From positions 1 through 32,000 of the forward strand of contig NC_007483.1 in the NCBI RefSeq assembly GCF_000012805.1: a stretch of 32,000 bases of DNA. The letters run 5' to 3'. A model generated the notes under the pieces. That model saw only the letters and a list, made by a program, of their open reading frames with translations. It searched no databases and was not told where the DNA came from. Below are positions 1,740 through 28,843 of this stretch, piece after piece. Position 1 is the first letter of the stretch; every line of letters starts with the position of its first letter. The DNA is from Nitrosococcus oceani ATCC 19707. GTDB taxonomy: Bacteria; Pseudomonadota; Gammaproteobacteria; Nitrosococcales; Nitrosococcaceae. A program made the position numbers and the translations under genes.

Positions 1740-1743
1740 CGGT

Positions 1744-8122: not shown

Positions 8123-8164
8123 GACAAAAAAGGTGGAGCTTAAGCTCAGGAAACCTTAACCTTT

Positions 8165-10629: not shown

Positions 10630-11476
10630 AAAAATTTCACCCCTTGCCGGCAAGATTAATCGAAACGTATTTTTTCATACCTCCCTGGATCTGCCGCGCA
10701 TCATAGAGGTGGATCTCAGCAATCTCAGGGAGAATCCCGATCAACCCCGTAAAACCTTTGACGAGACGGCTTTGCAAGAGCTTGCCGCCTCCATAGAGCA
10801 ACACGGATTAATTCAGCCTATCGCTGTTGCATCCGATCCGGAAAATAAAGAGGGTTACATGGTGGTGGCCGGTGAGCGCCGGTTGCGGGCTTTTAAGCGG
10901 CTTGGGCGTGAGACCATCCCAGCCATCGTTACCCAGGGGAACCGTGATGAGATCGCCTTGATTGAAAATCTTCAACGCGAAAACCTCAATCCACTTGAAG
11001 AAGCGGAAGCGTTAGCACAAATTATGAGCCGCCATGCGTACACTCAAAATGAGGTAAGTAAGGTCATCGGCAAAGCTAGAAATACGGTGAATGAGCTTTT
11101 GCGCCTCAACACGCTGCCTCAAGGCATTAAAGAGGAGTATCGGAGTCGGACGTCCGACTCTGGGGTGTCGAAGTCAGCGCTTATTGAGCTGACTAGGATA
11201 AAAAACAAAGACGAACAATTGAATCTTTGGGAAGAATTAAAGGCAGGGGCCACCGTGCGGACTGCTAGAAAAGCAAAAAAAGAGGAAATAACCAGCAAGA
11301 CGCCTTCTTCTCCAGCCATGCAACTGCTTTCTGCTGGGAAAGGATTTACCAAGAAACTGGCGGGGATTGCTCCTCACGAATTAAACAGTGAGCATTTTTA
11401 TACGTTGCTTAAATTACGCGAGCAGATAGATAAATTAATTAATACCCTAGAGGAAGAAGGTGGCGGGCGATTTTAG
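10622..11476 (+). CDS. parB: ParB/Spo0J-family partition protein
   Basis: ParB box 'GYMVVAGERRLRAFKRLG' and 'IALIENLQRENLNPLEEAEA'. An HTH region follows. Confidence 0.9.
   Translation: MAKKISPLAGKINRNVFFHTSLDLPRIIEVDLSNLRENPDQPRKTFDETALQELAASIEQHGLIQPIAVASDPENKEGYMVVAGERRLRAFKRLGRETIPAIVTQGNRDEIALIENLQRENLNPLEEAEALAQIMSRHAYTQNEVSKVIGKARNTVNELLRLNTLPQGIKEEYRSRTSDSGVSKSALIELTRIKNKDEQLNLWEELKAGATVRTARKAKKEEITSKTPSSPAMQLLSAGKGFTKKLAGIAPHELNSEHFYTLLKLREQIDKLINTLEEEGGGRF
11143..11160. promoter_or_regulatory. 18-bp perfect palindrome GAGTCGGACGTCCGACTC, copy inside parB (candidate parS)
   Basis: Exact palindrome. An identical copy lies at 11558-11575. Confidence 0.5.
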
Positions 11477-11557
11477 GCTGTCCTTGGGATTAATTTCATC
11501 TCTTTTAAGCATGGATGAACTCAACAGACGGCCTCTTGGTAAAACCCAATTCCTACA

Positions 11558-11575
11558 GAGTCGGACGTCCGACTC
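11558..11575. promoter_or_regulatory. 18-bp perfect palindrome GAGTCGGACGTCCGACTC, copy 82 nt downstream of parB (candidate parS)
   Basis: Identical to the 11143-11160 copy. A half-site-like GAGTCGGCACTC occurs near 11750. Confidence 0.5.
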
Positions 11576-12187
11576 CAAGATAGAGCAGAGGTAATTCTGC
11601 TCTCCGAGCTTAAAATTCTAATGCGTGGAGATCACCATTCTATGCCCACGCTATTCTTTACCTAAATGATCGCGAGCTACCCCTGTTCCTTGTAGTAACT
11701 GGGGCAGAGAAAATTTGCTAGCTGGTTTTTCCTCTCTCTGTTTTTTCGAGTCGGCACTCAACACAACCCCACGGTATGGAGGGATCTGTACTTTATAAGA
11801 ATGAAATCCTTTCGGCGGAAAGCGCGGAACAGAATGACCGGCTCGTAAAACCGTTATCCGATTTACTAAGGAAAACCCCTTCACCCCAAAAGGTGAACCC
11901 TATCACATTACTTTGAAACCTGTTGGACGAGGTTTTGATGGATAATCACTAAAACTAGGGTTTTAGTAACTTTGATTTGAAGATGATGGAATATCGGTGT
12001 TTTTTAGCTGTTATATAGGCGATTTTTTGCCAGACACCCCCATAATTACGAAAATGGGTTTCAACTCTAAAGCACTAAAATAGTAATTTCAGTAAATCGC
12101 AAATCCGGCGCTTATGGTACTGTAAGCGCAACAGGAGATTAAAAGCCGCATGGAGAACGCGGCCCGATTCTGAACCGGGGAGGCATT

Positions 12188-13126
12188 GTGACAATGGAGA
12201 AAAAAGCCGTTGATTTCTGGCAGGCACGAAAAGACTTCCTGGCGCATCTGCATTACGCCAAGGGGTACAGTCAGGGGACCTGCTATGCCTACAACTCGGA
12301 CCTGGGCATTTGGGGCCGCTGGCTGGCAGAAGTGGGCAAGGACTGGTGTCAGGCCACCCATGCAGACACCGAGAAGTTTGTGGCCTGGCAGATGCGGGAG
12401 CGGGGCGCCAAGGCGCACATCGTGGCCCGCCGCTCCAGTTGCCTAGGCTCGTTCTACAAATGGGCCATGAAGAATGCCCTGGTGGAATCAGACCCCATCT
12501 ATCTCGCTGATAAGCCCAAGCGTCCCTATCGCATCCCCGTCTGGCTAGAGAAGGAAGAGCAACAAGCGCTCCAGGAAGCGACCCAGCGGATAGACAATTT
12601 ACCCGAGAATATCTTCGGGCGTACCCAGGAGCATATTAAAGCGGTCCGGCGTCGCTATGATGTCCTGTTTGGCCTTATTCTCAACAGCGGCCTGCGAATC
12701 AGCGAAGCTCTGGCCGTGAAAGTCCGGGATGTGCGGGTGATGAACGGGATCGCTAAATCCGTGCGGATCATCGGCAAGGGCAACCGGGAACGGCTGGTGC
12801 CACTACCGGAAGCCTTCGGCCAAGTATTCGGGGCTTGGCTACAGGGCAGGGAAGGGGACGATTTCGTGTTCGCCAAAGCCCCGGGGGGAAAACCGCCTGG
12901 ACCCCATGCGGCGCGGGCCTATTTGCGGCGGCTCATTGAACGGGCGGGCATCGACAAGCCCGTGACTCCCCACAAGCTGCGTCATACTTACGCCACGCGG
13001 CTACTAGAATCAGGTGCCGAGTTGGTGGACATCCAGGCTTTGCTGGGGCACGTGGATTTATCCACCACCCAGATTTACACCCATGTGAGCGAGGAGCGGA
13101 TGGCCGGGGTGGTGGCGAAGTTGTAG
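12188..13126 (+). CDS. tyrosine site-specific recombinase (XerC/XerD-like integrase)
   Basis: N-terminal SAM-like domain. Catalytic signature 'GLRISEAL', 'HKLRHTYATRLL' and 'LLGHVDLSTTQIYTHV'. GTG start with GGGGAGG upstream. Confidence 0.85.
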   Translation: MTMEKKAVDFWQARKDFLAHLHYAKGYSQGTCYAYNSDLGIWGRWLAEVGKDWCQATHADTEKFVAWQMRERGAKAHIVARRSSCLGSFYKWAMKNALVESDPIYLADKPKRPYRIPVWLEKEEQQALQEATQRIDNLPENIFGRTQEHIKAVRRRYDVLFGLILNSGLRISEALAVKVRDVRVMNGIAKSVRIIGKGNRERLVPLPEAFGQVFGAWLQGREGDDFVFAKAPGGKPPGPHAARAYLRRLIERAGIDKPVTPHKLRHTYATRLLESGAELVDIQALLGHVDLSTTQIYTHVSEERMAGVVAKL

Positions 13127-13207
13127 CCCATGGGAAGAGGTGATCTTGATGGCTGTAAGTTGTAGAGCTTAGATCTTAGATGGGGTTGAAAGTCTTTCCA
13201 ACTTCAA

Positions 13208-13576
13208 TCAGAAGGTGACACCCAACTCTTTCTCGGCGCAGCTTTGACAAATCTCTTGATCCAGCATGTGACCGGCGTTTACTCGTTCTTTGCAATGCCT
13301 ACAGACACGGAAAAACCGCGACGTTTCAAGCGCCTTCATTTGGGCTGCCGCAAGTCGCTCGTTTGTAGGAGGTCTGGACCACTGGCGAAAAGCCTTCCAA
13401 CTGAGTTCCGGGCTATGGCTATGTGCTCCGCCCCATGTGACCACGCCTACTTCGAGAACGGTTTTGCCGTCTCTTTCCGCTAGGCGAGTGAATTCGCTAA
13501 TAAGCTCATCGTCGGTCATCGCTCGTGGCCCCTGTGCATTATGATGGCTTTTTTTGTGGGTAATATCTCTGGGCAT
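13208..13576 (-). CDS. hypothetical protein with C-terminal CxxC...CxxC zinc ribbon
   Basis: 122-aa ORF with 'CRHCKERVNAGHMLDQEICQSC'. No family recognised. An alternative start lies at 13519. Confidence 0.4.
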   Translation of the reverse strand: MPRDITHKKSHHNAQGPRAMTDDELISEFTRLAERDGKTVLEVGVVTWGGAHSHSPELSWKAFRQWSRPPTNERLAAAQMKALETSRFFRVCRHCKERVNAGHMLDQEICQSCAEKELGVTF

Positions 13577-13723
13577 TGCAAGTACAACTCCGATTTTAAG
13601 GTAGTATTTCTGTACTCAGAATAGTCTGGCCCTTTCACCTTACGGACCTGCACGTTCAGGAGGAGTACGAGCACAAATGGTAGAGCTTCTTCCTAGAACC
13701 AGAACACACTTAATTTAATTCCT

Positions 13724-13760
13724 GGAATATACCTTTTCGAAGGGATCTGCAAAAAACCCC
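13724..13760. repeat. 37-bp inverted repeat, left copy (ends ...CCCC)
   Basis: GGAATATACCTTTTCGAAGGGATCTGCAAAAAACCCC. Its reverse complement matches 14810-14846 at 36 of 37 positions. Confidence 0.85.
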
Positions 13761-13905
13761 ACGTTGGACGCGGATTATTCACCACAGTCTGCATGTGACA
13801 TCGTGCTCGATCCGAATTGCTTGGGGACTCGTATCTATCAGTGTACGTTCGGAATTCGCCGTGCGTAGGCTTCTGATTAATTTAGTGACAGTACGGAGAC
13901 GAGCC

Positions 13906-14969: not shown

Positions 14970-15236
14970 ATGGAACTTAAACAAGACGATACGCCGGAGT
15001 TTTGGGCAGAGGCGATGAAGCGAGTATTAGAGTATTATAAACAAGGGTTATCGTTGGCGGAGGCTGCCGAGCGGTTATCGATTCCGAAAGTGACCTTAAC
15101 GACATGGGGTCAGCAAAGCCAAAGGGGGAAAGCGCCAGCGGCGCCACTCGTGCCTTGGCTACCTGGCCCCGGCTGTGTTTGCTCAAAACTTCCGCAAACC
15201 ACAGGGGGTTACCTGAAACAGGAGCGTCCACGATGA
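14970..15236 (+). CDS. small helix-turn-helix protein, possibly a transposase N-terminal remnant
   Basis: GGAGG RBS then ATG at 14970. 'GLSLAEAAERLSIPKVTLTTW' is HTH-like. It lies 124 nt inside the GGGG-starting repeat, and its C-terminal half is low complexity. Confidence 0.35.
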   Translation: MELKQDDTPEFWAEAMKRVLEYYKQGLSLAEAAERLSIPKVTLTTWGQQSQRGKAPAAPLVPWLPGPGCVCSKLPQTTGGYLKQERPR

Positions 15237-15292
15237 CCAGGACACCTCAGTCACGATTGAAGGTTTGGAGACCCATGCCATCGTCCACAGCC

Positions 15293-16756
15293 ATGAAGCA
15301 TCAGGATATCGGTTGGCATTTTGATAACACCTATGCGCAGCTGCCCGACCACTTTTACACGAAGCTGCATCCGGTTCCGGTGCATGAACCACGCCTTGTC
15401 ATTGTCAATAATGCCCTGGCAGAAGAACTAGGATTAAATCTCAAAGCCTCCTCTGAGGATGAATTAGCGCAGCTTTTTTCAGGCAATCAGCTTCCAGAAG
15501 GTGCAGAGCCTCTGGCGCAGGCCTACGCCGGGCATCAGTTTGGCCATTTTACCTATTTGGGTGATGGGCGGGCCCATTTAATCGGCGAGCATCTCACCCC
15601 AGACGGTAAACGGGTGGATATTCAGTTCAAAGGCTCGGGCCAAACACCCTATGCCCGGCGCGGTGATGGGCGTGCAGCGTTGGGTCCGATGCTGCGAGAG
15701 TATATCATCAGCGAAGCCATGCATGCGCTGGGCATCCCTACCACCCGTAGTCTTGCGATAGCCACCACCGGCGAATCTGTTTACCGGGAAACGGTACTGC
15801 AAGGAGCGATTCTGACCCGCGTCGCATCCAGTCACTTGCGTGTGGGCACATTTGAATATCTGGCCGCACAAGAAGATAAAGCAGGCCTGAAGCAACTTAC
15901 TGATTATGCTATACAGCGCCATTATCCAGAAATAATAGACTCTGATACTCCCTATCTTGAGCTGCTCAAGGCCGTCATGGCTTGCCAGATAAAACTTATC
16001 ACCGAATGGCTGCGAGTAGGGTTTATTCACGGCGTGATGAACACGGACAATATGGCCGTTTCCTGTCAGACCATTGATTATGGCCCCTGTGCATTCATGG
16101 ATAGCTATGATCCCAACACCGTGTTCAGCTCCATCGACCACATGGGGCGTTATGCCTATGCCAATCAGCCCCGTATCGCGCAGTGGAACTTAGCACGGTT
16201 TGCTGAAGCTATCCTTCCGCTACTGCATGAAAATATTGAGAAGGCTGCCGCAATGGCAGAGGAAGTCATCCAGTCATTTAAGGCATTATTTCAGCAGGAA
16301 TGGCTAGCAATGATGCGTCGCAAGCTGGGGCTGTTCGGTGAAGAAAAAGAAGATAGGGAATTCATCACCGGGCTTCTGCAATGGATGCAACGCAGTCATG
16401 CGGATTATACCAATACATTCCGTGATTTGATGGATGAGCATTTTCCCGAAGAGCCACACTATCAGGATCAAGAATTCAAACATTGGTACGATAGATGGCA
16501 ACAGCGGCTGGAACATAACACCAACCCGTTCCCATCCTCCCTGTGCCTCATGGGTGCGACCAACCCGGTGGTCATACCCCGTAATCATCGTGTAGAAGCA
16601 GCGCTTAACGCTGTAGAACAGAACGCTGACTTCTCAAAGCTACATGAATTGCTGGATGTGCTGTCTGAGCCCTATAAAGATAAAGAGAAATACACTGAAT
16701 TCAAAAACCCTCCTGCGCCGAAAGAACGGGTGTACCAAACCTTTTGTGGTACTTGA
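15293..16756 (+). CDS. selO: protein adenylyltransferase SelO (YdiU family)
   Basis: 'YAGHQFGHFTYLGDGRAHLIGE', 'FKGSGQTPYARRGDGRA' and 'GFIHGVMNTDNMAV' are hallmark SelO motifs. The start was moved to the ATG at 15293 (487 aa). The upstream 63 codons of the track ORF are low complexity. Confidence 0.9.
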   Translation: MKHQDIGWHFDNTYAQLPDHFYTKLHPVPVHEPRLVIVNNALAEELGLNLKASSEDELAQLFSGNQLPEGAEPLAQAYAGHQFGHFTYLGDGRAHLIGEHLTPDGKRVDIQFKGSGQTPYARRGDGRAALGPMLREYIISEAMHALGIPTTRSLAIATTGESVYRETVLQGAILTRVASSHLRVGTFEYLAAQEDKAGLKQLTDYAIQRHYPEIIDSDTPYLELLKAVMACQIKLITEWLRVGFIHGVMNTDNMAVSCQTIDYGPCAFMDSYDPNTVFSSIDHMGRYAYANQPRIAQWNLARFAEAILPLLHENIEKAAAMAEEVIQSFKALFQQEWLAMMRRKLGLFGEEKEDREFITGLLQWMQRSHADYTNTFRDLMDEHFPEEPHYQDQEFKHWYDRWQQRLEHNTNPFPSSLCLMGATNPVVIPRNHRVEAALNAVEQNADFSKLHELLDVLSEPYKDKEKYTEFKNPPAPKERVYQTFCGT

Positions 16757-16959: not shown

Positions 16960-18171
16960 TCAGCAACCGGGATTGTCCTGGGCTTCCGCCGGCGCCAGTC
17001 GTGCCAGCAACGCGGTAGCCTGCTTCTGATGCGCGGTGAGTTGACCAGCCAGTTCTGCGGCCCGCTCACGCGCGCTGCCGGCATCCTGCCTGGCCTGGTC
17101 ACGCTCTGCCTGAACGGCGTTCAAGCGCTCGGCCATCTTATGGATCTCGGTCGCAGCCTTCTTGCGCTGCTCCTGGTGCGACTGTTCAGCCGCCTCGGCC
17201 TTGGCTTGTACCTTTGTCAACTCGGCACGCACCCGCTCAAGTTGCATGGTCACTGCCTTGGTAGCCTGCTGTGCCTCGGTCGCGGTATTTCGCGACCTAT
17301 CGGCATCCTGGTGCACCCGATCTAGTTCGGCGCGAAGGTCCGCCGCTCGGTGCTCGATTTCCTCGGCTTTTGCTTCGGCTCGTTCCGCTCTTGTTAGTGC
17401 CTGGGTCAACTCTCCCTGTACGGCGGCCAACTCAGCGGCAGCCTGGGCAGTTTGCTCCTGGTGCGACTGTTCGGCCGCCTCGGCCTTGGCTTGCACCTTT
17501 GCCAACTCGGCACGCACCCGCTCAAGTTGCATGGTCACTGCCTTGGTAGCCTGCTGTGCCTCGGTCGCGGTATTTCGCGACCTATCGGCATCCTGGTGTG
17601 CCCGGTCTAGTTCGACGCGAAGGTCCGCCGCTCGGTGCTCGATTTCCTCGGCTTTTGCTTCGGCTCGTTCCGCTCTTGTTACTGCTTGGGTCAACTCTTC
17701 CTGTACGGCGGCCAACTCAGCGGCAGCCTGGGCAGTTTGCTCCTGGTGTAGCTGGGTCGCGGCGGCCGCCTGCGCCTTAACCTGATCGAGCTCCGTCGCC
17801 TGCGTTTCGTAGGCATCAGCCAGTTCAGCCCGCATAGCATCCAGTTCGGCCTGTTCGGCCTCCCAGCTTGATTGGGCGGCCTGTAGTGATTCGTTCGCCA
17901 GCTTCTGAGCTTCCTGCCACAACGTAGCCAGAGCGGTAGCATTAGCCTGGCTAATTGTCTCCGGCACGGTAACAGCCACGGGTGCGACCTGGACGGTTTG
18001 CTGGCGTCGCCACTCCCGCATCACAGCGCTAGTGGTGTTCATATCGGCTCGCGCTACCCGGCGTACTTGGTCCACTGTGGGGAACGCTTCGCGGTTGGCC
18101 TGCTCGTACAGTTCATCAGCCGTAGAGGTGATGCGTTCGCGTACTTCAGCGGGGATCATGAATTGAGTCAT
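16960..18171 (-). CDS. kfrA: KfrA-like DNA-binding coiled-coil protein
   Basis: N-terminal 'ITSTADELYEQANREAFPTVDQVRRVARADMNTTSAVMREWRRQQ' is KfrA_N-like. The remainder is Ala/Glu/Gln-rich coiled coil with a 95-aa internal duplication. Confidence 0.7.
   Translation of the reverse strand: MTQFMIPAEVRERITSTADELYEQANREAFPTVDQVRRVARADMNTTSAVMREWRRQQTVQVAPVAVTVPETISQANATALATLWQEAQKLANESLQAAQSSWEAEQAELDAMRAELADAYETQATELDQVKAQAAAATQLHQEQTAQAAAELAAVQEELTQAVTRAERAEAKAEEIEHRAADLRVELDRAHQDADRSRNTATEAQQATKAVTMQLERVRAELAKVQAKAEAAEQSHQEQTAQAAAELAAVQGELTQALTRAERAEAKAEEIEHRAADLRAELDRVHQDADRSRNTATEAQQATKAVTMQLERVRAELTKVQAKAEAAEQSHQEQRKKAATEIHKMAERLNAVQAERDQARQDAGSARERAAELAGQLTAHQKQATALLARLAPAEAQDNPGC
17166..17735. 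repeat. 2 x 285-bp in-frame tandem duplication inside the kfrA-like gene
   Basis: Units at about 17166-17450 and 17451-17735 differ by roughly a dozen substitutions by eye. The protein repeat is 'ATKAVTMQLERVRAEL.KVQAKAEAAEQSHQEQTAQAAAELAAVQ.ELTQA.TRAERAEAKAEEIEHRAADLR.ELDR.HQDADRSRNTATEAQQ'. Confidence 0.9.
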
Positions 18172-18974: not shown

Positions 18975-19203
18975 GATTTATCTCTCACTGCGTAAAGAAA
19001 CTCGATAAGTATCCTTATATGCTGACGTAGATTATTTTACTCAGTAAATTGCCTAACTTGGCCGCGAAAAGCAAGCAAAAAGCGGGGTGAGGCAGCGAGT
19101 AAAACAAACCCTCGTTTTCTTTACCAGGGATTCTCTGCCTGTGATGCCGCTTGCTGCTATGGAGAAGTTTTGGCCTGCGCCTGGAGGGCGGTACACTGCG
19201 GCT

Positions 19204-19572
19204 ATGAATCACCCCGATGAAGCAGACTGGTTGAGAGCGGCCTATCTGGAGAAGCGAGACTTGGAGAAGCGGCAGTTTCGTTTCTATTGCATTATCATCA
19301 CCCAGATGCTCTTTGGCCACTGGGCCTTAATCCGGGAATGGGGCCGAATTGACAGCCTCGGCACCGTCCGGGAAGTTTGGTATGACACTCAGGAACATGC
19401 TCGGGAAGCAGGTGCTATCTTACTCAGTCAGAATAGGCATCACCACCTCTACTTCGTATGCCTACGTCACTGGACAACGATTACTCGATCGCGAAAAGGC
19501 CAGATGAGGAAGAAGCTGAGGGAAATCTCAAAACCTATCGCAGCGTCCACATTTATCGTTATATCGGCCTGA
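19204..19572 (+). CDS. WGR-domain protein, paralogue 1 (divergent/extended C-terminus)
   Basis: 'YLEKRDLEKRQFRFYCIIITQMLFGHWALIREWGRIDSLGTVREVWYD'. The ATG at 19204 aligns with the start of the 23032 paralogue. Similarity is lost after about codon 70 and the frame reads on for about 50 more codons. Confidence 0.55.
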   Translation: MNHPDEADWLRAAYLEKRDLEKRQFRFYCIIITQMLFGHWALIREWGRIDSLGTVREVWYDTQEHAREAGAILLSQNRHHHLYFVCLRHWTTITRSRKGQMRKKLREISKPIAASTFIVISA

Positions 19573-19583: not shown

Positions 19584-20546
19584 TTATTCCTGAAGAGGAT
19601 GAATGAGTAGATTCCAATAATATTCGGAAGCACCTTCATTGGTGAGCTTTTCCTTAGCAGCAGGTTGATGAAACTGCATGCCGAGCGGCTTCAAATACAT
19701 CATATGGCCATCATCTTCGATTCGAAGTTGCTCATTGAAACTACTGTCACTACCTGTATCACCGTACGCATACACGAGGCCACTGGTGAAAGAATTTTGA
19801 CTGCCTTGCCAGATGCGGCAACTGCTGATGGATTTGCCATTTTCATAAATGGCAGCGGAGAAATGGCGGGCATCAATACGTCGGAATCGAGTTCGAATAC
19901 TAGGATTACGCCGCTCCAGCTCAGCTAGAGAACCCTCGAAGAAATTTGCCATATAATCAAATGCATCATCGAGAAAGGTATCACGGTCATGGTCCGTGAA
20001 ACTCTTCCTGATACGTAAATTGCTGGATCGTAGCGCATGCCGTACAGGAGCAGTCTGCTCGGTAGGTGGGTAAGCAGATAAGCCCGTCTGAGGCTTGATG
20101 GGAGCCGATATCACTTGCTCGGCAGCTCGTTTGATTGCCTTGACGATTTCTAAAAAGGCCTCGTCTTTATCTGGAAACTTCGTCACGGGTTTGCCATCCG
20201 TAGGCGTTGCTAAAAGCTTGCCGAAGCGTGCGCTATGCCAGTCGCAGGGGCGGAGAATTACCGGAATAACTTTGGCATTACCTTCTTCATGCCGCTCCAA
20301 AGCGCGGGTCATCTCGACATCGTAACAATAGTCGGAAGCCAGGAAATCCGGGCTGACTAAGAGAAGAGTGATATCGGCATTCTCAAGATTTTCACTGATA
20401 GTCTGGTCAATGACCTCTCCGGCCCCAATTCTCCGGTCATGCCAGGCATCAATCACACCTTGGCGTTTGAGCATGGCAAGGTGTATCTCCAGCTCGTCAC
20501 GCAAAGGCTCATCCTTATGGGAGTAAGAGAAGAAGACAGAGGCCAT
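19584..20546 (-). CDS. TIR-domain protein with uncharacterised C-terminal domain
   Basis: 'VFFSYSHKDEPLRDELEIHLAMLKRQGVIDAWHDRRIGAGE...ADITLLLVSPDFLASDYCYDVEMTRAL...VIPVILRPCDW' is a canonical bacterial TIR, with the Glu in 'CYDVE' retained. About 180 aa of the C-terminus are unassigned. The ATG at 20546 is preferred; the track start at 20564 is TTG. Confidence 0.85.
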   Translation of the reverse strand: MASVFFSYSHKDEPLRDELEIHLAMLKRQGVIDAWHDRRIGAGEVIDQTISENLENADITLLLVSPDFLASDYCYDVEMTRALERHEEGNAKVIPVILRPCDWHSARFGKLLATPTDGKPVTKFPDKDEAFLEIVKAIKRAAEQVISAPIKPQTGLSAYPPTEQTAPVRHALRSSNLRIRKSFTDHDRDTFLDDAFDYMANFFEGSLAELERRNPSIRTRFRRIDARHFSAAIYENGKSISSCRIWQGSQNSFTSGLVYAYGDTGSDSSFNEQLRIEDDGHMMYLKPLGMQFHQPAAKEKLTNEGASEYYWNLLIHPLQE

Positions 20547-20567
20547 CAGTTTTTTCTCGATCAATGG

Positions 20568-20801
20568 TTAATGCTTCCGATCTTTGGGTGGGTGAGGATT
20601 ATTCTCGTAGCTATGGGAGTCCCGGATTCGGCCATCACAACGATGAATTACCAGCGCCGTCTGGTTTTTTTTCGCCAGTCTCCTGCCTTCGTTACTGGCA
20701 TCTTTCTGGGTACGGTGAAGAGAAGAAGCGCGATCTTTTCCCTCTTTTTGTATAGCCCACTGCTTGTTACGGGGCACCACATGATAATCACGCTTAGGCA
20801 T
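20568..20801 (-). CDS. DUF2188-domain protein
   Basis: 'YHVVPRNKQWAIQKEGKDRASSLHRTQKDASNEGRRLAKKNQTALVIHRCDGRI' matches the DUF2188 pattern. GGAGAGG RBS. Its stop is 3-21 nt from the TIR gene start. Confidence 0.75.
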   Translation of the reverse strand: MPKRDYHVVPRNKQWAIQKEGKDRASSLHRTQKDASNEGRRLAKKNQTALVIHRCDGRIRDSHSYENNPHPPKDRKH

Positions 20802-21000
20802 ACATCCTCTCCAAGTTAGTCAATCATCCAGTCATCACCGGAGACAAAATATTGAGACCTATACAGCCCAAGTATATCCTCCAGCGCCTCCAAAGGTAGC
20901 TCATCTTGAGCAAGTTCAATGGCTTGCCTCGATCTAGCCATCGTGCAGTTGATTCAAAACCTGAGTGGATAATTGCTGTCTTTATTAAATAGAATTAATA

Positions 21001-21041
21001 TCCCAGATAATATGTGTCCTTAGGACACATATTATCTGGGA
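21001..21041. promoter_or_regulatory. 41-bp near-perfect palindrome (20-nt arms, 1-nt centre), core GTCCTTAGGAC
   Basis: TCCCAGATAATATGTGTCCT-T-AGGACACATATTATCTGGGA, in the divergent intergenic region between the DUF2188-TIR operon and abiEi. Confidence 0.6.
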
Positions 21042-21084
21042 ATTGATAAACTGTCAAGAAAATCCTTTTAAGACATTGGAAGTA

Positions 21085-21113
21085 TTGACAATATTTACGA
21101 TACCATATATACG
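21085..21113 (+). promoter_or_regulatory. sigma70-like promoter of abiEi/abiEii
   Basis: TTGACA (21085-21090), 17-nt spacer, TATACG (21108-21113). It overlaps the left arm of the second palindrome. Confidence 0.45.
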
Positions 21114-21139
21114 TCCTAAGGACGTATATATGGTATCGT
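21097..21139. promoter_or_regulatory. 43-bp near-perfect palindrome (21-nt arms, 1-nt centre), core GTCCTAAGGAC; candidate AbiEi operator
   Basis: ACGATACCATATATACGTCCT-A-AGGACGTATATATGGTATCGT. It ends 10 nt before the abiEi ATG. Confidence 0.6.
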
Positions 21140-21148: not shown

Positions 21149-22069
21149 ATGGATATTCGCACCGCTCTGACTCTGGAACTGGGTGATCTCCATCAGCCCG
21201 TCGTGACTAGCTACCATCTCGGTCTTCTGGTGTTTCGCCTGTACCAAACTAAAACCTACCGGGGTGAACCCATTGCTCGTTTGAGCAAGTCCTACCCGGA
21301 GCGGAGTGACTATCGCCGGTTTGTTGGCAATTTGGAACGTTTAGGTGTGCTTCGGAACACCACCGCAGTGCCTAATAAAGAGGTTTTCATCCTTCTTGGC
21401 AAAGATATCTCCTCGGCCGAGGAGATTGCCTGTTGCGTCGATCCCTTCACCTATGTTTCGCATCTGAGCGCTATGGAATATCACGGTCTTACCGACCGTT
21501 TTCCCAAAACGCTCTTTATAACCGCCCCCCCACCTGTTCGCTGGTCACAGCTGGCAGGGGAGAAAATGCGAAAGGAGATAGGAGGGGAATTTTACTTGTC
21601 GTACCTTGACACTCATCTTCCTCGGTTGCGGCGTCTGCGTTTGCCAAAAATCAATCGCAAGTCCGTTAGCCTATACACGACCGTTCATTATGATCTCGGC
21701 GCTTATCTATCAATTCAGGATAAGACTTTGCGAGTCTCAACAATCGGGCGCACGTTTCTTGATATGATTCGGGAGCCTGATCTATGCGGTGGCATCTATC
21801 ATGTGCTGGACGTATATGCGGAGCATGCGCTCCGCTATCTGCGTTTGATCGTAGATAAGGTTGACCGCCATGGCAGCCCCATTGATAAGGTGCGCGCAGG
21901 ATATATTCTTGAAGAGCGTCTTAAGCTCGAACATCCTACCATCGCAACATGGCGGGCCTATGCCAAACGAGGCGGTTCACGAAAGCTTTTAGCACAAGCT
22001 GACTACAGCCCGCACTTTTCCGAAACATGGTGCTTATCCATTAACATCGATGAGCCTGGGGAGCCTTGA
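21149..22069 (+). CDS. abiEi: AbiEi-family antitoxin/transcriptional regulator (type IV TA)
   Basis: 306 aa. 'VSHLSAMEYHGLTDRFPKTLFI' is typical of the AbiEi C-terminal domain. It lies immediately upstream of an AbiEii nucleotidyltransferase gene. Confidence 0.75.
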   Translation: MDIRTALTLELGDLHQPVVTSYHLGLLVFRLYQTKTYRGEPIARLSKSYPERSDYRRFVGNLERLGVLRNTTAVPNKEVFILLGKDISSAEEIACCVDPFTYVSHLSAMEYHGLTDRFPKTLFITAPPPVRWSQLAGEKMRKEIGGEFYLSYLDTHLPRLRRLRLPKINRKSVSLYTTVHYDLGAYLSIQDKTLRVSTIGRTFLDMIREPDLCGGIYHVLDVYAEHALRYLRLIVDKVDRHGSPIDKVRAGYILEERLKLEHPTIATWRAYAKRGGSRKLLAQADYSPHFSETWCLSINIDEPGEP

Positions 22070-22927
22070 TTGCAAAAATTCGATATCAAAGAGTGGATCA
22101 ACCAGAATTCAGAACATCGCTCCTTTCGCCAAGCCGTTCATACCATCCTCACCGCGATTGCGGGTACTCCCAGCCTACAAACAGCTATGATTATGAAGGG
22201 CGGCGTGCTGCTTGCTCTCAGCTACAGAAGCCCGCGTTATACCTCGGATATCGACTTTTCGACAGCAACGAAGCGGCCTGATTTTAACCTTGATGATTTC
22301 CGCGGGAAACTTGAAGCGAGTTTGATTGATGCCGTTGAAGATTCGGGATACGGCCTCGATTGCCGCATTCAGCGTTGCAAGATGAGCCCCCCTCACGATG
22401 AGGCTACCATGCCGACACTTCAGATCAACATTGGTTATGCCTATAAAGGCCAACACAACTATAAGCGTCTGTTAGAAGGCCGGGCGACTACGGTCATTAG
22501 CCTCGATTATAGCCTAAATGAGCCCGTGGAAGAAATTGATATCTTCGAGCTGGAAGACGGGAATGTTATTCATACTTATAGCCTGGTGGAGATGGTGGCG
22601 GAGAAGTTCCGCGCGCTCTTGCAGCAGGAAGTCCGCAAGCGGGCACGGCGTCAGGATATTTATGATCTGCACTATGTCCTGAGCGATCATCCCCTGCGCA
22701 ACGACTCGGATACCCAAGCCCGTATTCTTAAAAGGCTGATTGATAAATCACGCATTCGTGATTTATCGGTACATTTAGATTCTATGTCCAACCCTGAGAT
22801 TCGAAATCGCACAGCGCTTGAATACTCCAAGATGGCCCCGGAAATTGAAGGTGATCTTCCACCATTCGATGAGGTTTATGCCATAGTCGAGTCTTTTTAT
22901 CGAGCCCTTCCTTGGGAAAAGGTCTGA
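22070..22927 (+). CDS. abiEii: AbiEii/AbiGii-family nucleotidyltransferase toxin
   Basis: 'MKGGVLLALSYRSPRYTSDIDFS' (NTase G[GS]...DxD motif) and 'VEMVAEKFRALLQQ'. The TTG start directly abuts the abiEi stop. Confidence 0.8.
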   Translation: MQKFDIKEWINQNSEHRSFRQAVHTILTAIAGTPSLQTAMIMKGGVLLALSYRSPRYTSDIDFSTATKRPDFNLDDFRGKLEASLIDAVEDSGYGLDCRIQRCKMSPPHDEATMPTLQINIGYAYKGQHNYKRLLEGRATTVISLDYSLNEPVEEIDIFELEDGNVIHTYSLVEMVAEKFRALLQQEVRKRARRQDIYDLHYVLSDHPLRNDSDTQARILKRLIDKSRIRDLSVHLDSMSNPEIRNRTALEYSKMAPEIEGDLPPFDEVYAIVESFYRALPWEKV

Positions 22928-23031
22928 TTCCCTGTATCACCATTTACTTCATCGTTTCGGCCAAAAATATCTACTTGCGCAGATTCACGTAGGCTTCTGG
23001 TCTGCCCCTGAGGGCATGGTACATTGCTGGC

Positions 23032-23292
23032 ATGAAGCACCCCGGCAAAGCAGACTGGACGAGGGTGGCCTATCTGGAGAAGCGAAACCCAGAGAAGCGC
23101 CAGTTTCGCTTCTACCGCATCATGATTACCCAGACGCTCTTCGGCTCGTGGGCTATGATCCGCGAATGGGGCAGGATCGGCAGCCCCGGTACTGTGCGGG
23201 AAGTCTGGTTCGACAGTGAGCAGGAAGCGTTAGAAGCCGGTGAGAAGCTTATGAATCAGAAAACACGGCGGGGGTATCAAGTCATCACGTGA
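23032..23292 (+). CDS. WGR-domain protein, paralogue 2 (compact, 86 aa)
   Basis: 'YLEKRNPEKRQFRFYRIMITQTLFGSWAMIREWGRIGSPGTVREVWFDSEQEALEAGEKLMNQKTRRGY' is a complete stand-alone WGR domain. Confidence 0.8.
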   Translation: MKHPGKADWTRVAYLEKRNPEKRQFRFYRIMITQTLFGSWAMIREWGRIGSPGTVREVWFDSEQEALEAGEKLMNQKTRRGYQVIT

Positions 23293-24007: not shown

Positions 24008-26758
24008 ATGGCTTTCGATCAAACCTACTGCATGGATACCCTCATTGCTGCGACCCGGCCTGATGCTGATCTCGGAGAGTTCATTTTTGCCTTTCTCGAC
24101 GCCTATAACTTTCCCAAGGCGACGGTTACGCAGATTCGCAAGGGTGGTCAACGTAACGTCGCCAGCCGTAAAAATGAAGGGCACGTCGCGATGAAGAACT
24201 GGCTGTACTTCATGCCGGTGCGAGCGGGCGAGAGCATTCACGAGGCGCTCCAGGTACTGGCAGATGAAGAAGAGCCGCCGCGCCATAAGTGTCGCTTTCT
24301 GGTGGTGACCGACTATCAAGAACTCACTGCACTGGATACCAGGACGGATGAGCGTTTGGAGGTGATTCTCGGTGAGCTGGCCACCCAATACCTGTTCTTT
24401 GCCCCCATGGCGGGGCTTGAGCGTACCAAGCCATTTAGCGAAGAATCGGCCGACCTCAAGGCCGCCGCCAAGATGGGGCGGCTGTTTGATCGCCTGAAGG
24501 AAATCAACGAGTTTCAGACTCCCGAGCAGCTTCACGCGCTTAACGTGTTTCTGACCCGGTTGCTGTTCTGCTATTTCGCTGAGGATACCGGGATTTTCCC
24601 CAAGAACGCCTTCACCAAAGTGATCACCGAAGCTAGCGGCAAGAACGGCGAGGGGCTATCCGACCTACTAAAGCAGCTGTTCCGAGTGATGGATCAAGCC
24701 GAGGGCGAGCGACCGGCGGACTTGCCAGCTCATATTGCCCAGTTCCCTTATGTCAACGGCGGCCTATTCCGTGACAACATGCCAGCCCCCAAGATGCGCG
24801 GTAAAGCCAGACGGATGATGATCGAGTGCGGCAAACTCCAGTGGAAGGCCGTCAACCCCGATATCTTCGGCTCGATGTTTCAGGCGGTAGTAGACGAAAA
24901 GAGCCGTGACTCGTTGGGCCAGCACTACACCTCTGTACCGAACATCATGAAGGTGATCCGTCCCCTGTTCCTCGACAAGCTGTATGCCGACCTGCACAAG
25001 TCAAAGGGCAAACGCAGGCAACTGGAAGCACTACTGGTACGGCTGGCCCGTATTTGGGTGTTCGATCCGGCGATGGGCTCCGGCAATTTTCTGATCATCG
25101 CCTATAAGGAACTGCGCCGACTGGAGATGGCCACCTTCCGGTCACTTCAAGCTATGAGTGGTAGTGGCCAGCAGGAAATTTTCATGAGTGGCATCCAGCT
25201 CAGCCAGTTCTATGGTATCGAGATCGACGATTTCGCGCACGAAATTGCCCAGCTATCCCTATGGCTGGTTGAGCATCAGATGAACACGCTGTTTGTAAAG
25301 GAGTTTGGTCATGCTGAGCCAGTGCTACCGCTAAAAGATACTGCCAACTTGGTGCAAGGAAATAGCCTTCGGATGGATTGGCAGAAGGTATGTCCCAATG
25401 ATGGCAGCGCTGAAATATATGTATGCGGGAACCCGCCATTTATTGGCCATGGTAGTCGAGAGAATAGCCAGCTCGACGATATGCGATTGGTGTTAGGGCA
25501 GCTGATTCGCACATACAAGTCCCTCGACTATGTGGCCTGCTGGTTCTTTTTGGCTGCGGAATACTGTCGCCACGGGACAGCAAACGCCGCCTTTGTGTCG
25601 ACGAACTCTCTATGCCAAGGCAAACAAGCGGGGCTACTGTGGCCGTTGTTGGTAGATATGGGGATGAAAATCAGCTTTAGCTACCAAACTTTCCCTTGGC
25701 GGAACAGTGCAAAGGGTAACGCAGGTGTGCATGTTGTGGTCATTGGGCTGGCTGCTCATAACGGACCACGGGTACTCTTCAACCGTATTGATGGTGCCTG
25801 GCATCGTAAAGAAGTTACGAACATCAGCCCCTATCTACTAGAAGGAGGCGACACTGTTGTACGGGAGCGACGAGATCCGCTAATTCAGGACGCATTACCA
25901 ATGTACTTTGGCAATATGCCTAACGACGGTGGCCACCTCCTGTTGACCGCAGGGGATAAAGAGAAGTTAATCGCACAAGAGCCCGCGGCAGAGGCTTGGA
26001 TCAAGCGCTTAATGGGGGCTAAAGAGTTCCTGCAAGGCCATGAGCGCTGGTGTCTGTGGTTGGTTAATGCCACGAAAGAAGAAATCGATGCTATGCCTGT
26101 GGTTCGCGAGCGAGTGGAGCGTGTGCGGGAAACACGTCTTGCTAGCAAAGATGCTGGCGCACGAAAGCTCGCCGAACGGCCGCACCAATTCCGAGACCTT
26201 AATAACCCGGAAAGCTTCATTTTAGTCCCAAGCGTTACATCCGAGCGCCGGAAATATGCGCCCGTCGGGATTTTTGAAGAAGACGTAATTGCTACTAACC
26301 TAACATTAATCATTCCAGATGCTGGGTTATACGATTTCGCCATTCTTTCCACGCAAATGCACATGGACTGGCTACGCCTGGTGGGAGGCCGTTTAGAAAG
26401 CCGTTACCGCTATTCTGCAACTATCGTCTACAACACCTTCCCTTGGCCCAATGCTACCGAAGCACAGCGTAACGCTATCGAAAAACTAGGCCGAGCCGTT
26501 ATTCTGGCGCGTGCAGCGCATCCCGATAAAACCATGGCCCAGCTTTATGACCCGGACAAGATGCCGGACAAACTGCTGGAGGCCCACCAAGCACTGGACC
26601 GCGCCGTGGAGCGCCTGTATCGGGAGCGCCCCTTCCGCGATACCGCTGAGCGTCAGGAATATCTGCTGGCCCGCTATGAGTCGCTGATTGAGGCGGAGAA
26701 AACCGCCAAGGCTGGTAGCAGGAAACAGCCTCGAAAAGCCACGAGTATGGAGAGTTAA
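24008..26758 (+). CDS. large MmeI/YeeA-like N6-adenine DNA methyltransferase (916 aa)
   Basis: SAM motif I 'VFDPAMGSGNFLI' and catalytic motif IV 'CGNPPFIGH'. Long N- and C-terminal flanking domains, as in type IIL/IIG-like enzymes. RBS CTGGAG. Confidence 0.85.
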   Translation: MAFDQTYCMDTLIAATRPDADLGEFIFAFLDAYNFPKATVTQIRKGGQRNVASRKNEGHVAMKNWLYFMPVRAGESIHEALQVLADEEEPPRHKCRFLVVTDYQELTALDTRTDERLEVILGELATQYLFFAPMAGLERTKPFSEESADLKAAAKMGRLFDRLKEINEFQTPEQLHALNVFLTRLLFCYFAEDTGIFPKNAFTKVITEASGKNGEGLSDLLKQLFRVMDQAEGERPADLPAHIAQFPYVNGGLFRDNMPAPKMRGKARRMMIECGKLQWKAVNPDIFGSMFQAVVDEKSRDSLGQHYTSVPNIMKVIRPLFLDKLYADLHKSKGKRRQLEALLVRLARIWVFDPAMGSGNFLIIAYKELRRLEMATFRSLQAMSGSGQQEIFMSGIQLSQFYGIEIDDFAHEIAQLSLWLVEHQMNTLFVKEFGHAEPVLPLKDTANLVQGNSLRMDWQKVCPNDGSAEIYVCGNPPFIGHGSRENSQLDDMRLVLGQLIRTYKSLDYVACWFFLAAEYCRHGTANAAFVSTNSLCQGKQAGLLWPLLVDMGMKISFSYQTFPWRNSAKGNAGVHVVVIGLAAHNGPRVLFNRIDGAWHRKEVTNISPYLLEGGDTVVRERRDPLIQDALPMYFGNMPNDGGHLLLTAGDKEKLIAQEPAAEAWIKRLMGAKEFLQGHERWCLWLVNATKEEIDAMPVVRERVERVRETRLASKDAGARKLAERPHQFRDLNNPESFILVPSVTSERRKYAPVGIFEEDVIATNLTLIIPDAGLYDFAILSTQMHMDWLRLVGGRLESRYRYSATIVYNTFPWPNATEAQRNAIEKLGRAVILARAAHPDKTMAQLYDPDKMPDKLLEAHQALDRAVERLYRERPFRDTAERQEYLLARYESLIEAEKTAKAGSRKQPRKATSMES

Positions 26759-26761
26759 GGC

Positions 26762-28843
26762 ATGACGGAACTGATCAAGGTTGAATACGGTCGCACCGGC
26801 AAGAGTACCAATAGCAATACCTTGGGTATGCGGGAGATGCAGGCCCGAGCATACGAAAAACGCGACAGTCAGTACTTGTTGCTCAAGGCACCACCGGCCT
26901 CCGGCAAATCGCGAGCACTGATGTTTCTGGCCCTCCATAAGCTCCATTGCACTGGCCTGCGCAAAGCCATCGTTGCTGTGCCGGAGATATCGATTGGGGC
27001 ATCCTTTAAGAGCACCGACCTTACTACTCACGGCTTCGAGTGGGACTGGCACGTGGAAGACCGCAACGACCTATGCCGCGCCGGCAATGACAGCGGCAAG
27101 GTGGACGCTTTCTGTCGCTTCATGGCGAGCCCGACCGATCGTATCCTGGTCTGCACCCACGCCACGCTGCGATTCGCGTTTGCCAAGCTCGGTCCTAGCG
27201 ACTTTGATGACTGCCTGGTGGCCATCGACGAATTTCACCATGTCTCGGTCGATGAAGGCAACCGTCTGGGTGGATTGATCGACGATCTGATGCTGGGCGC
27301 CACGGCGCATATCGTGGCGATGACCGGCAGTTACTTCCGCGGTGACGCCGCACCGATCCTGCTGCCGGACGACGAAGCCCGTTTCAACAAAGTGACCTAC
27401 ACTTACTACGAACAGCTCAACGGCTACCGCTATCTGAAGTCACTGGGCATTGGCTACCATTTCTACCCAGGGCGCTACCTCGATGCGATTAATGAGGTGC
27501 TTGATCCTGATAAGAAAACCATCGTCCATATTCCCAACGTCAACAGCGGCGAAAGCACCAAAGACAAGTATAGTGAGGTCGATCATATTCTCGATGCGCT
27601 GGGTGAGGTGGAGGCCCAGGACAGCCAGACCGGTATCGTAACAGTGCGCCATCCCTCGGGACGCTTGCTCAAGGTTGCTGACCTGGTAACGGATACGCCT
27701 ATCCGCCGCGATGTGCAGGAGTATCTGCGCGGCGTAGAGCACCCCGAAGACGTGGACGTGATCATTGCCTTGGGTATGGCCAAGGAAGGCTTTGACTGGC
27801 CGTTCTGTGAGCATGTACTGACCATTGGCTATCGCCGATCGATGACCGAGATTGTCCAGATCATCGGGCGTGCCACGCGTGACAGCGAGGGCAAGACTCA
27901 TGCCCAGTTCACTAACTTGATCGCTCAGCCGGACGCAGACGATGAGGACGTGAAGGTCAGCGTCAACAACCTACTCAAGGCGATCACGGTGTCACTGCTG
28001 ATGGAACAAGTGCTGGCACCTAGCGTGTCCTTTAAGCCGCGTTCGCGGATGCAGGCGGGTGAAGAGACGGAGCCAGGCACGATAATCATTGAGGATACTC
28101 AGGCGCCAGTCTCGGACAAGGTGATCAGCATCCTCCAGTCAGGCGGCCAGGAAGACATTATTGCCGCACTCCTGCAAAAGTCGGAAGTGGCTGCTGCGGC
28201 AGTGACGGAGGTTGTCGAGCCTGAGGTAATCAATGAGTTCGAACTACCTAAGGTTATCGAGCGTCTGCACCCTGAGCTGGATGCTAACGAGCGCGAGCTA
28301 CTCCGCGAGACAGTGCTAACCACCATGGGTGCCCGCGCCACAGGCGGGTTGTTTAACGAAGAAGACTTGCCCGAAGGCGCTGAGATACATGAGCCTGGCC
28401 AAATCTATGACACACATGGCGATGGGCAGCCGGCCGAGCTCGGTACTGCGTCCGATGGACGTGACCTCAGTGATGACAGCAGCGAGGGTGGGGCATCGGG
28501 CAGCCGTCAGTTCCTCAAAATTGGCGATAAGTTCGTTAACATCGAACACCTCAATATTGACTTGATCAATCAGATCAACCCTTTCCAAGGGGCCTATGAA
28601 ATTCTCTCCAAGGCGCTGACGGCACCGGTGCTCAAGGCGATTCAGGACACCGTGGTAGGCGACCGGGCGCAGATGACCGAGGAGGAAGCGGTGATATTGT
28701 GGCCCAGAATTGTAGAGTTCAGGAAAGCTAAGGGACGAGCACCGATGGTGCATAGTGATGATCACATGGAGGTCCGCTACGCTCTGGCACTGGCCTATAT
28801 CCAGCATAAAAAGCGTGAGCGTATGCAGGAGGCCACAACATGA
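26762..28843 (+). CDS. SF2 (DEAD/DEAH-like) helicase with acidic C-terminal extension
   Basis: Walker A 'KAPPASGKSRAL', Walker B 'VAIDEFHHV', motif III-like 'MTGS', motif VI 'QIIGRATRD'. The start is 3 nt after the methyltransferase stop. Confidence 0.85.
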   Translation: MTELIKVEYGRTGKSTNSNTLGMREMQARAYEKRDSQYLLLKAPPASGKSRALMFLALHKLHCTGLRKAIVAVPEISIGASFKSTDLTTHGFEWDWHVEDRNDLCRAGNDSGKVDAFCRFMASPTDRILVCTHATLRFAFAKLGPSDFDDCLVAIDEFHHVSVDEGNRLGGLIDDLMLGATAHIVAMTGSYFRGDAAPILLPDDEARFNKVTYTYYEQLNGYRYLKSLGIGYHFYPGRYLDAINEVLDPDKKTIVHIPNVNSGESTKDKYSEVDHILDALGEVEAQDSQTGIVTVRHPSGRLLKVADLVTDTPIRRDVQEYLRGVEHPEDVDVIIALGMAKEGFDWPFCEHVLTIGYRRSMTEIVQIIGRATRDSEGKTHAQFTNLIAQPDADDEDVKVSVNNLLKAITVSLLMEQVLAPSVSFKPRSRMQAGEETEPGTIIIEDTQAPVSDKVISILQSGGQEDIIAALLQKSEVAAAAVTEVVEPEVINEFELPKVIERLHPELDANERELLRETVLTTMGARATGGLFNEEDLPEGAEIHEPGQIYDTHGDGQPAELGTASDGRDLSDDSSEGGASGSRQFLKIGDKFVNIEHLNIDLINQINPFQGAYEILSKALTAPVLKAIQDTVVGDRAQMTEEEAVILWPRIVEFRKAKGRAPMVHSDDHMEVRYALALAYIQHKKRERMQEATT

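Follow-up and report, generated by a model that had tools for sequence, protein, structure and literature searches.

A 32,000-nt stretch of DNA from Nitrosococcus oceani ATCC 19707 (NC_007483.1, positions 1 to 32,000; here called the window) carries on its minus strand a two-gene operon, in which a small gene of the DUF2188 family precedes a gene for a protein that joins an N-terminal TIR domain to a C-terminal Y4lF domain (TIR-Y4lF). We found that this operon lies in the defence island of a Nitrosococcus-type plasmid and that it is a variant of known TIR immunity and not a new kind of system. Our preferred explanation, which we hold tentatively and at slightly less than an even chance, is that TIR-Y4lF is a self-contained sensor-effector, that DUF2188 is a generic accessory, and that repression of the operon acts through an operator of the AbiEi type. 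In this explanation, the TIR domain would be the output and would most likely consume NAD+ when activated, leading to growth arrest or abortive infection, and the Y4lF domain would hold it inactive until it receives a cue, possibly a component of a phage or an altered state of a small partner. The DUF2188 protein would be a strongly basic accessory and not a ThsA-like effector; it would probably modulate how the toxic effector encoded downstream is expressed or activated, acting as its regulator or buffer. Since a putative AbiEi-type operator overlaps the predicted promoter of the DUF2188-TIR operon, the operon would probably be repressed jointly with the divergent abiE system.

The DUF2188 gene (20568-20801, minus strand) encodes 77 aa with a pI of 10.4, is the first gene of the operon, and has a strong Shine-Dalgarno sequence, GGAGAGG. 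The large open reading frame (ORF) downstream can be read from a TTG at 20564 (19584-20564, 326 aa) or from an in-frame ATG at 20546 (320 aa plus stop). When the protein was aligned with 19 and later with 119 homologues, every aligned sequence began with M-x-x-(L/V/I)-F-F-S-Y-S-H. Because these N termini are uniform, we take the ATG as the real start, which gives a TIR-Y4lF gene at 19584-20546 (minus strand; identified from the ORF, from Pfam and PADLOC matches, and from homologue starts) that lies 21 nt from the DUF2188 stop codon; the TTG is an unlikely start in this alignment. The gene is also called at 320 aa on 15 contigs of one lineage, on which the same DUF2188-TIR pair is identical (e.g., GCA_000740745.1, JPGN01000541.1). 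The two ORFs are therefore as described in an earlier annotation made from the letters alone (the sequence-only reading), a 77-aa DUF2188 gene upstream of a 320- to 326-aa TIR protein, and of its 3- to 21-nt gap the longer value stands while the 3-nt variant depends on the unlikely TTG. Because the two genes are codirectional and 21 nt apart, they are almost certainly cotranscribed. The same reading had pointed to a 41-aa ORF with no clear ribosome-binding site in what we predict to be the 5' leader (20816-20941, minus strand). We found no ribosome-binding site for it, no family match in Pfam, PADLOC, NCBIfam, or phrog scans, and no homologue at any of 182 related loci; since all three are absent, we do not count this ORF as a gene, and it is probably not one.

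The N-terminal part of the large protein (residues ~1 to 145; 20112-20546, minus strand) proved to be a canonical TIR domain with a putative catalytic glutamate, as the sequence-only reading had proposed. Pfam TIR_2 matches residues 10 to 112 (E 2e-16), and Glu78, in the motif S-D-Y-C-Y-D-V-E, is invariant across a 20-sequence alignment and nearly so across 120 sequences. The closest solved relative is the TIR domain of Cat1, an NADase effector (E 2.3e-8, phmmer against PDB sequences), with Glu78 aligned by HMMER to the glutamate of the W-C-x-x-E motif in that domain. The PADLOC model ThsB1 (PDLC00420) matches residues 7 to 325 of the 326-aa form against positions 1 to 316 of 319 in the profile (E 7.7e-127), so that this profile spans the whole protein, including its C-terminal half; the runner-up PADLOC model was SAVED-TIR (E 2.4e-11). 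The score of Pfam ThsB_TIR was below threshold, and NCBIfam contained no model for the TIR-Y4lF or DUF2188 protein and no Thoeris model that fits.

We also found that the C-terminal ~180 aa, which the sequence-only reading could not assign, are catalogued. The last ~150 aa (residues ~173 to 320; 19587-20030, minus strand) are the Pfam domain PF27176, Y4lF, in the precomputed Pfam annotation of an identical database protein, and the whole protein falls within PADLOC ThsB1. Over its full length, the window protein shares 50.9% identity with the domain's namesake, the product of y4lF on plasmid pNGR234a of Sinorhizobium fredii NGR234. Structure prediction, which had been suggested as a check on this domain, gave an AlphaFold model (pLDDT 83) with a long helix, a six-stranded sheet, and a C-terminal helix, and a Foldseek search of the PDB with this model returned nothing at E ≤ 0.001. 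Likewise, phmmer of the full protein against PDB sequences matched the TIR part and found no match for Y4lF. Weak hits to the Cas1 N-terminal domain in the Foldseek searches of the PDB with the Y4lF and DUF2188 models were dismissed as noise (E 0.04, rmsd ~10 Å). Between the TIR and Y4lF domains lies an invariant RSSNLR motif (20013-20030, residues 173 to 178), followed by I/V-K/R-K-x-F-T/S-D, in a segment of low model confidence that is probably a disordered linker. The strong conservation of this linear motif suggests a docking, cleavage, or autoinhibitory site.

When 1.84 billion cluster representatives were scanned in full by HMMER with the Y4lF domain alone, 888 of them contained it, in every case at the C terminus. 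Most of these proteins are of the ~320-aa TIR-Y4lF type, and the longer ones carry other heads: a CHAT caspase-like protease, a GGDEF cyclase, a SEFIR-like TIR, or a DUF2513-HTH segment with a CAP12/Pycsar-type TIR (fusions to non-TIR_2 or other heads are found in our proteins P0210, P0252, P0247, P0258, and P0209). Because Y4lF is fused to CHAT, GGDEF, CAP12-type, and SEFIR-like heads, it is a mobile module that extends beyond TIR_2. A domain that senses or regulates would be expected to occur in this way, as a constant C-terminal module behind swapped enzymatic heads, and the sequence-only reading's first option, a self-contained TIR effector with a C-terminal sensor, thereby gains indirect support, though not proof.

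To place the operon among its relatives, we turned to the TIR-Y4lF family, which has at least 6782 members at E ≤ 1e-5 and in which sequences from Nostoc and other cyanobacteria, Desulfobacterota (Desulfobacterales), Nitrospirota, and Proteobacteria are 55 to 62% identical. For the 80 top-ranking loci from genomes and as many from metagenomes (1.32 Mb in total), all ORFs were searched with the window DUF2188 protein and with a profile of 19 homologues. DUF2188 was found at none of the genome loci and at 4 of the metagenome loci, so that 156 of 160 are without it. All four matches lie upstream of the TIR gene, on the same strand and within the TIR operon, and there was no DUF2188 elsewhere in the 1.32 Mb of flanking DNA. 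Three of these loci (L103, L110, and L166) form one clade, with TIRs 85 to 89% identical to one another, and share a layout in which genes for an HTH protein and an M78 peptidase are divergent from an operon of DUF2188, a 99-aa CxxC protein, a ~106-aa protein, and TIR-Y4lF. At the fourth (L128), a 130-aa DUF2188-like ORF of divergent sequence (E 8e-4) is followed by genes for a 179-aa protein and TIR-Y4lF. By these sequence comparisons, DUF2188 accompanies TIR-Y4lF in three lineages, that of the window and two others, and the link is non-random and real but rare, with a variable architecture. The adjacency whose recurrence was to be checked thus does recur (4 of 160 loci, two lineages), though rarely and in other architectures, and the pairing is codirectional, 21 nt apart, and free of a ThsA-type partner as first described, but is not fixed. 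The window TIR is ~61% identical to the L166 clade and equally so to clades with other partners, which leaves unsupported the idea that the window pair arose from the longer operon of L103, L110, and L166 by loss of its two middle genes.

The rarity of the link bears on one alternative, which we regard as unlikely: that DUF2188 and TIR-Y4lF are two independent single-gene defence candidates that are merely packed together, with the shared transcript a by-product of compact island assembly. Consistent with this, most TIR-Y4lF loci lack DUF2188, the window TIR is as distant from the DUF2188-linked clade as from the others, and DUF2188 stands alone on many plasmids. The window DUF2188 protein also matches PADLOC PDC-S16, in whose name the S appears to mark a single-gene candidate, and diverged repeats of a WGR-domain gene flank the block that holds the operon, which suggests cassette shuffling. 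However, the 21-nt spacing leaves no room for a promoter and makes coexpression obligatory, and DUF2188 recurs in TIR-Y4lF operons of two further lineages, always upstream and on the same strand. In addition, adjacency of TIR and DUF2188 genes extends to other TIR families, with at least 33 entries in Table S1 of a preprint on Thoeris systems (Yirmiya et al. 2025, bioRxiv 10.64898/2025.12.03.692087).

By clustering operonic neighbours and running iterated profile searches, we found six or more unrelated small families (~100 to 200 aa) directly up- or downstream of TIR-Y4lF genes. In ORFs called heuristically, these are family A (~165 aa, 19 loci, among them pNGR234a, where it follows y4lF), family A2 (~180 aa, 8 loci), family B (~100 aa, 10 loci), family D (~120 aa, 11 loci, often divergent), family E (3 loci), and family F (2 distinct loci). 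Examples of small partners lie at 1058-1552 of locus L014, 4190-4498 of L040, 1821-2198 of L037, 5431-5991 of L060, 7019-7471 of L057, and 4595-4978 of L187. Families A, B, and D had no match in Pfam or PADLOC, families A to C had none in NCBIfam, and families A2, E, and F had none in PADLOC. The sequences thus show a pattern of small-partner swapping around TIR-Y4lF. Under a heuristic rule that counts genes on the same strand and less than 200 nt away, 44 of 158 TIR-Y4lF loci are without an operonic neighbour, and most of the remaining neighbours occur only once. Among large genes, only those of type I restriction-modification systems recurred at the 80 genome loci, and no ThsA-like partner was recurrent beside 168 TIR-Y4lF relatives. 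Annotated plasmid copies of TIR-Y4lF stand alone, one beside a gene for a PLD-type anti-phage protein (Desulfosarcina) and one beside a Dam methylase gene (Pseudomonas aeruginosa pPUV-6). Separately, on a Pseudosulfitobacter plasmid (NZ_CP054605.1; locus L179, 2289-4466), a type VI retron HTH-RT pair (PADLOC HTH_VI, E 6e-30; RT_VI, E 2e-84) ends 19 nt before a TIR-Y4lF gene, whose product may serve as an added effector of that retron; the window itself has no reverse transcriptase gene and so differs from a retron with a TIR effector.

This swapping of partners can be read in two further ways. One, which we judge improbable, is a toxin-antitoxin arrangement in which TIR-Y4lF is a constitutively dangerous NADase and DUF2188 a labile or titratable antitoxin, so that shut-off or sequestration by a phage would release the toxin. 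A small upstream gene, tight coupling, and a plasmid location would fit, as would many unrelated small partners in variable positions, which resemble antitoxin swapping, and the beta-beta-beta-alpha-beta topology of DUF2188 weakly recalls the N-terminal domains of HicB-type antitoxins at a non-significant E of 0.5. Speaking against it, most TIR-Y4lF genes have no recognisable partner, which argues that the protein is usually self-inhibited; in the other operons with DUF2188, two more genes stand between it and the TIR gene; and DUF2188 also accompanies operons without a toxin or stands alone. Unlike a toxin-antitoxin pair, the two genes are not co-conserved, with DUF2188 at just 4 of 160 relatives. 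A second reading, which is doubtful in our estimation and somewhat less improbable than the antitoxin one, is that Y4lF is a phage- or partner-sensing domain, not recognised before, that drives TIR, CHAT, and GGDEF heads, with the small neighbours as interchangeable guardees or adaptors, which would set off the effector when a phage perturbs them, and DUF2188 as a general sentinel or gatekeeper.

The sequence and the other settings of DUF2188 favour the accessory role that we prefer. The window protein is a full-length member of Pfam PF09954 (E 1.6e-22), matches both PADLOC PDC-S16 HMMs (E 2.8e-27 and 4.8e-27; residues 1 to 73 against positions 1 to 74 of 75), and matches phrog_3220 (E 5e-21). 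Its model (pLDDT 80.5) has a beta-beta-beta-alpha-beta-beta topology, and 19 homologues are all basic, with pI values of 8.1 to 10.4, the window protein being at 10.4. Against the PDB, neither phmmer of the sequence nor Foldseek of the model gave a significant match, and Foldseek against the viral BFVD set matched another DUF2188 protein only; a HicB-like fold was considered and set aside, since its Foldseek E value of 0.5 is not significant.

Among close homologues (40 to 69% identical to the window protein), DUF2188 opens a type II CBASS operon of patatin, CD-NTase, and Cap2 genes that lies beside a divergent HTH/M78-peptidase (CapH/CapP-like) gene pair. On a Rhizobium plasmid it follows HTH and ImmA/IrrE genes and precedes a multiubiquitin-E2-E1-DUF6527 operon; it also heads a lactamase-B plus E1-JAB operon, adjoins an AAA_11/AAA_12 helicase-nuclease gene, and elsewhere is divergent from a CopG repressor gene. 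We also found it alone on hundreds of Klebsiella and rhizobial plasmids (342 Klebsiella records; Sinorhizobium plasmids) and within the lysogeny module of Streptococcus prophages. Because DUF2188 heads CBASS, E1/E2, and E1-JAB operons, these comparisons make it unlikely to be a dedicated receptor of a TIR-derived signal. Published work is in line with this: DUF2188-containing operons under CapH/CapP control, one with a cNMP-binding TIR protein, have been described by Lau et al. (2022, bioRxiv 10.1101/2022.04.27.489752), who cite Burroughs and Aravind (2020) for the link of DUF2188 to defence, and a DUF2188 gene is drawn beside the Pa011 CBASS operon by Huiting et al. (2022, bioRxiv 10.1101/2022.03.30.486325).

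Such settings weigh on a Thoeris-like alternative, to which we give little credence and no more than to the antitoxin reading, in which TIR-Y4lF acts as a ThsB that makes an ADP-ribose-derived signal on infection and DUF2188 is a signal-binding effector that arrests the cell. The PADLOC ThsB1 model does span the whole protein, and in Fig. 1C of the preprint by Yirmiya et al. DUF2188 is among 29 putative Thoeris effector classes found beside defence-island TIRs, and Table S1 has 33 or more TIR entries for it (bioRxiv 10.64898/2025.12.03.692087). Furthermore, the GGDEF-Y4lF fusions indicate that Y4lF can drive a signal-generating head. On the other hand, the DUF2188 class was predicted from adjacency only and is not among its 15 verified systems, and the window TIR is just 20 to 26% identical to four representatives of the preprint's TIR clusters for this class (2507529800 and 2599729471); the motifs of the TIR-Y4lF family were not found in the part of Table S1 covered. 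The DUF2188 protein is a soluble, basic 77-aa protein with no recognisable toxic or ligand-binding domain, and it leads CBASS operons in which patatin already serves as the effector, as well as E1/E2 operons, which use no nucleotide signal. Finally, 156 of the 160 TIR-Y4lF loci are without DUF2188, and at none is there a recurrent ThsA-like gene.

The remaining part of our explanation concerns the region between the operon and the divergent abiEi-abiEii operon (21149-22927, plus strand). Both abi genes are well matched (PADLOC AbiEi, E 9e-110; AbiEii, E 3e-109; Pfam AbiEii, E 1.2e-31), and within the 207 nt between the leader ORF and abiEi we found two perfect palindromes, one of 41 nt with the core GTCCTTAGGAC (21001-21041) and one of 43 nt with the core GTCCTAAGGAC (21097-21139), the latter ending 10 nt before the abiEi start. 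Their common core, GTCCTWAGGAC, occurs twice in the window, against 0.02 occurrences expected. The first palindrome overlaps the -10 element of a predicted sigma-70-like promoter for the DUF2188-TIR operon (21029-21057, minus strand; TTGACA, 17 nt, TAATAT), whose 10 of 12 matches to consensus are of a kind found at background frequency.

Two other plasmids, of Thiodictyon and Xanthomonas, carry abiEi homologues (65.6% and 42% identity, respectively), each with one long palindrome with a GTCCT-N-AGGAC core just before the gene (2445-2485 of locus L192; 1389-1437 of L193), and neither locus has a DUF2188-TIR operon nearby. Since this type of palindrome occurs upstream of abiEi homologues that lack a DUF2188-TIR operon, it belongs to AbiEi, and its presence on three unrelated plasmids makes it a likely conserved operator of this AbiEi subfamily. 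AbiEi is reported to repress its own operon by binding to inverted repeats (Hampton et al. 2018). That a further copy lies over the promoter of the DUF2188-TIR operon suggests that AbiEi also represses this operon, which makes the abiE operon the likely source of the repressor for both palindromes, each a putative AbiEi-type operator. This arrangement, a repressor gene divergent from a DUF2188-headed operon, parallels the layouts with CapH and CopG found elsewhere.

We compared the locus with known systems. It resembles Thoeris in having a TIR with a conserved glutamate, a place in a defence island, and a full-length ThsB1 match, and it differs in the 150-aa Y4lF domain and in the absence of ThsA or any other signal-binding effector (SIR2-SLOG, Macro-TM, caspase-like, DUF2270, etc.) from the 32-kb window, as judged from the selected ORFs of at least 100 aa that were scanned. 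In that scan against Pfam or PADLOC we found no SIR2, SLOG, Macro, ThsA-type, STING, SAVED, or Argonaute gene, in agreement with the sequence-only reading, which had noted the lack of such partners. The predicted DUF2188 type of Thoeris is similar in that a TIR gene lies directly beside DUF2188 in a defence island, and dissimilar in its TIR clusters, to which the window TIR does not belong.

In its working, the locus is most like the fused sensor-TIR effectors TIR-SAVED (of CBASS), TIR-STING, and Cat1 (CARF-TIR), in which one polypeptide has a TIR head and a non-catalytic domain. Yet it is not a member of these groups, since Y4lF has no fold similarity to SAVED, STING, or CARF in the Foldseek search of the PDB, and the window has neither a cognate nucleotide cyclase nor a CRISPR Cas10. 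With the CapH/CapP-controlled operons described by Lau et al. (2022), it shares a promoter-proximal DUF2188 gene divergent from the gene for a DNA-binding repressor; L103, L110, and L166 have precisely the layout with divergent HTH and M78 genes, whereas the window has no CapH/CapP pair and its divergent regulator is AbiEi. It also differs from a PDC-S16 gene on its own in that DUF2188 is translationally close-coupled to the TIR gene. Thus, both genes are already catalogued as defence candidates, and DUF2188-TIR adjacency spans several TIR families and is in the literature, as a predicted Thoeris type. This weakens the sequence-only reading's other option, a new two-component system, as does the match of DUF2188 to PDC-S16. 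What is specific to the window is the pairing of DUF2188 with a Y4lF-type TIR, their direct 21-nt coupling, and the putative AbiEi-type operator.

Several points count against the explanation that we prefer. PADLOC files the TIR-Y4lF family under ThsB, and the Sorek group predicts DUF2188 to be a Thoeris effector (bioRxiv 10.64898/2025.12.03.692087). The TIR of the window could be a signal producer, since the GGDEF-Y4lF fusion has a signal-generating head, and TIR sequence similarity is an unreliable divider of NAD+-depleting from signal-producing TIRs. The sensor role of Y4lF follows the logic of domain swapping only, because its model resembles no solved fold. More generally, the roles proposed for Y4lF, the TIR-Y4lF family, and DUF2188 are read from sequence, and we found no literature on "Y4lF" or "PDC-S16". 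The region holds 4 promoter-like sites of the quality of the one we chose, against 3.2 expected, and the counts of partner families come from heuristic ORF calling and not from a gene finder.

The window as a whole encodes plasmid functions (ParA/ParB, a tyrosine recombinase, KfrA, and a resolvase) and dense defence cargo: an Mrr-like nuclease, AbiEi/AbiEii, an MmeI-like type IIG restriction-modification enzyme with two downstream genes, and AbiD. Positions 1-13767, with partition, integrase, Mrr, and LTD-nuclease genes, are 98.8% identical to the Nitrosococcus watsonii C-113 plasmid NC_014316.1 and 83.5% identical to the N. halophilus plasmid NC_013958.1. The right half of the window is absent from both plasmids, the cargo from ~14 kb onward is unmatched in PLSDB, and megablast of the DUF2188-TIR locus against plasmids gave no match. 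By this comparison, the plasmids have a common backbone and different defence cargo.

Around the operon, a 244-nt direct repeat (19190-19433 and 23018-23261, 74% identity) corresponds to two paralogous small WGR-domain genes that are 65% identical at the amino acid level, the first with an aberrant C-terminal extension. The repeat brackets a 3.8-kb block with TIR-DUF2188 and abiE, and it may mark cassette boundaries or a duplication. Beyond it, a three-gene operon (24008-30180, plus strand) encodes first the MmeI-like type IIG enzyme (916 aa, PADLOC E 3e-297), and also a 693-aa protein with a weak helicase-C match only and a 446-aa T5orf172/MUG113 protein (GIY-YIG-like, with a weak PDC-S57 match); this may be a composite defence system that combines restriction-modification with a helicase-nuclease.

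On the other side of the operon, the KfrA-like protein (403 aa; 16960-18171, minus strand) has a long internal duplication, in which the repeat '...AELAAVQ(E/G)ELTQA(V/L)TRAERAEAKAEEIEHRAADLR...QLERVRAEL(A/T)KVQAKAEAAEQSHQEQ' occurs twice and which accounts for the local GC content of 0.625 and the strongly negative AT skew at kfrA. A full-length SelO protein adenylyltransferase gene (15104-16756, plus strand; Pfam E 1.5e-118, no PADLOC match) lies on the plasmid at the margin of the defence cargo, with the recombinase module on one side and kfrA on the other. Further left, a gene for a Rap1a-type immunity protein, of a type VI secretion system effector immunity family, is directly upstream of a Mrr-cat/Zn-ribbon nuclease gene (6835-8122, plus strand), which is an unusual arrangement. 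Positions 2500-4500 are anomalous in composition, where GC content reaches 0.67 and AT skew +0.75, and contain a 410-aa ORF (2832-4064, minus strand) whose sole match, to DNA_processg_A, is weak and below threshold.

TIR-Y4lF is among the most widespread and conserved bacterial TIR architectures, with thousands of members that are filed as "ThsB" without a ThsA. The comparative evidence points to DUF2188 as a generic accessory, contrary to the Thoeris-effector prediction of the preprint, and this alters the choice of experiment. The window offers a compact, testable case of a defence operon under the putative operator of a neighbouring AbiE system. If the reading of Y4lF as a domain that senses phage or guarded partners were true, it would represent a modular, guard-type immune architecture undescribed in bacteria, with DUF2188 reused by CBASS, ubiquitin-like, and TIR systems. 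Evidence on whether TIR-Y4lF acts as an autonomous NADase or as a signal generator would decide the reading of a large share of "orphan ThsB" annotations.

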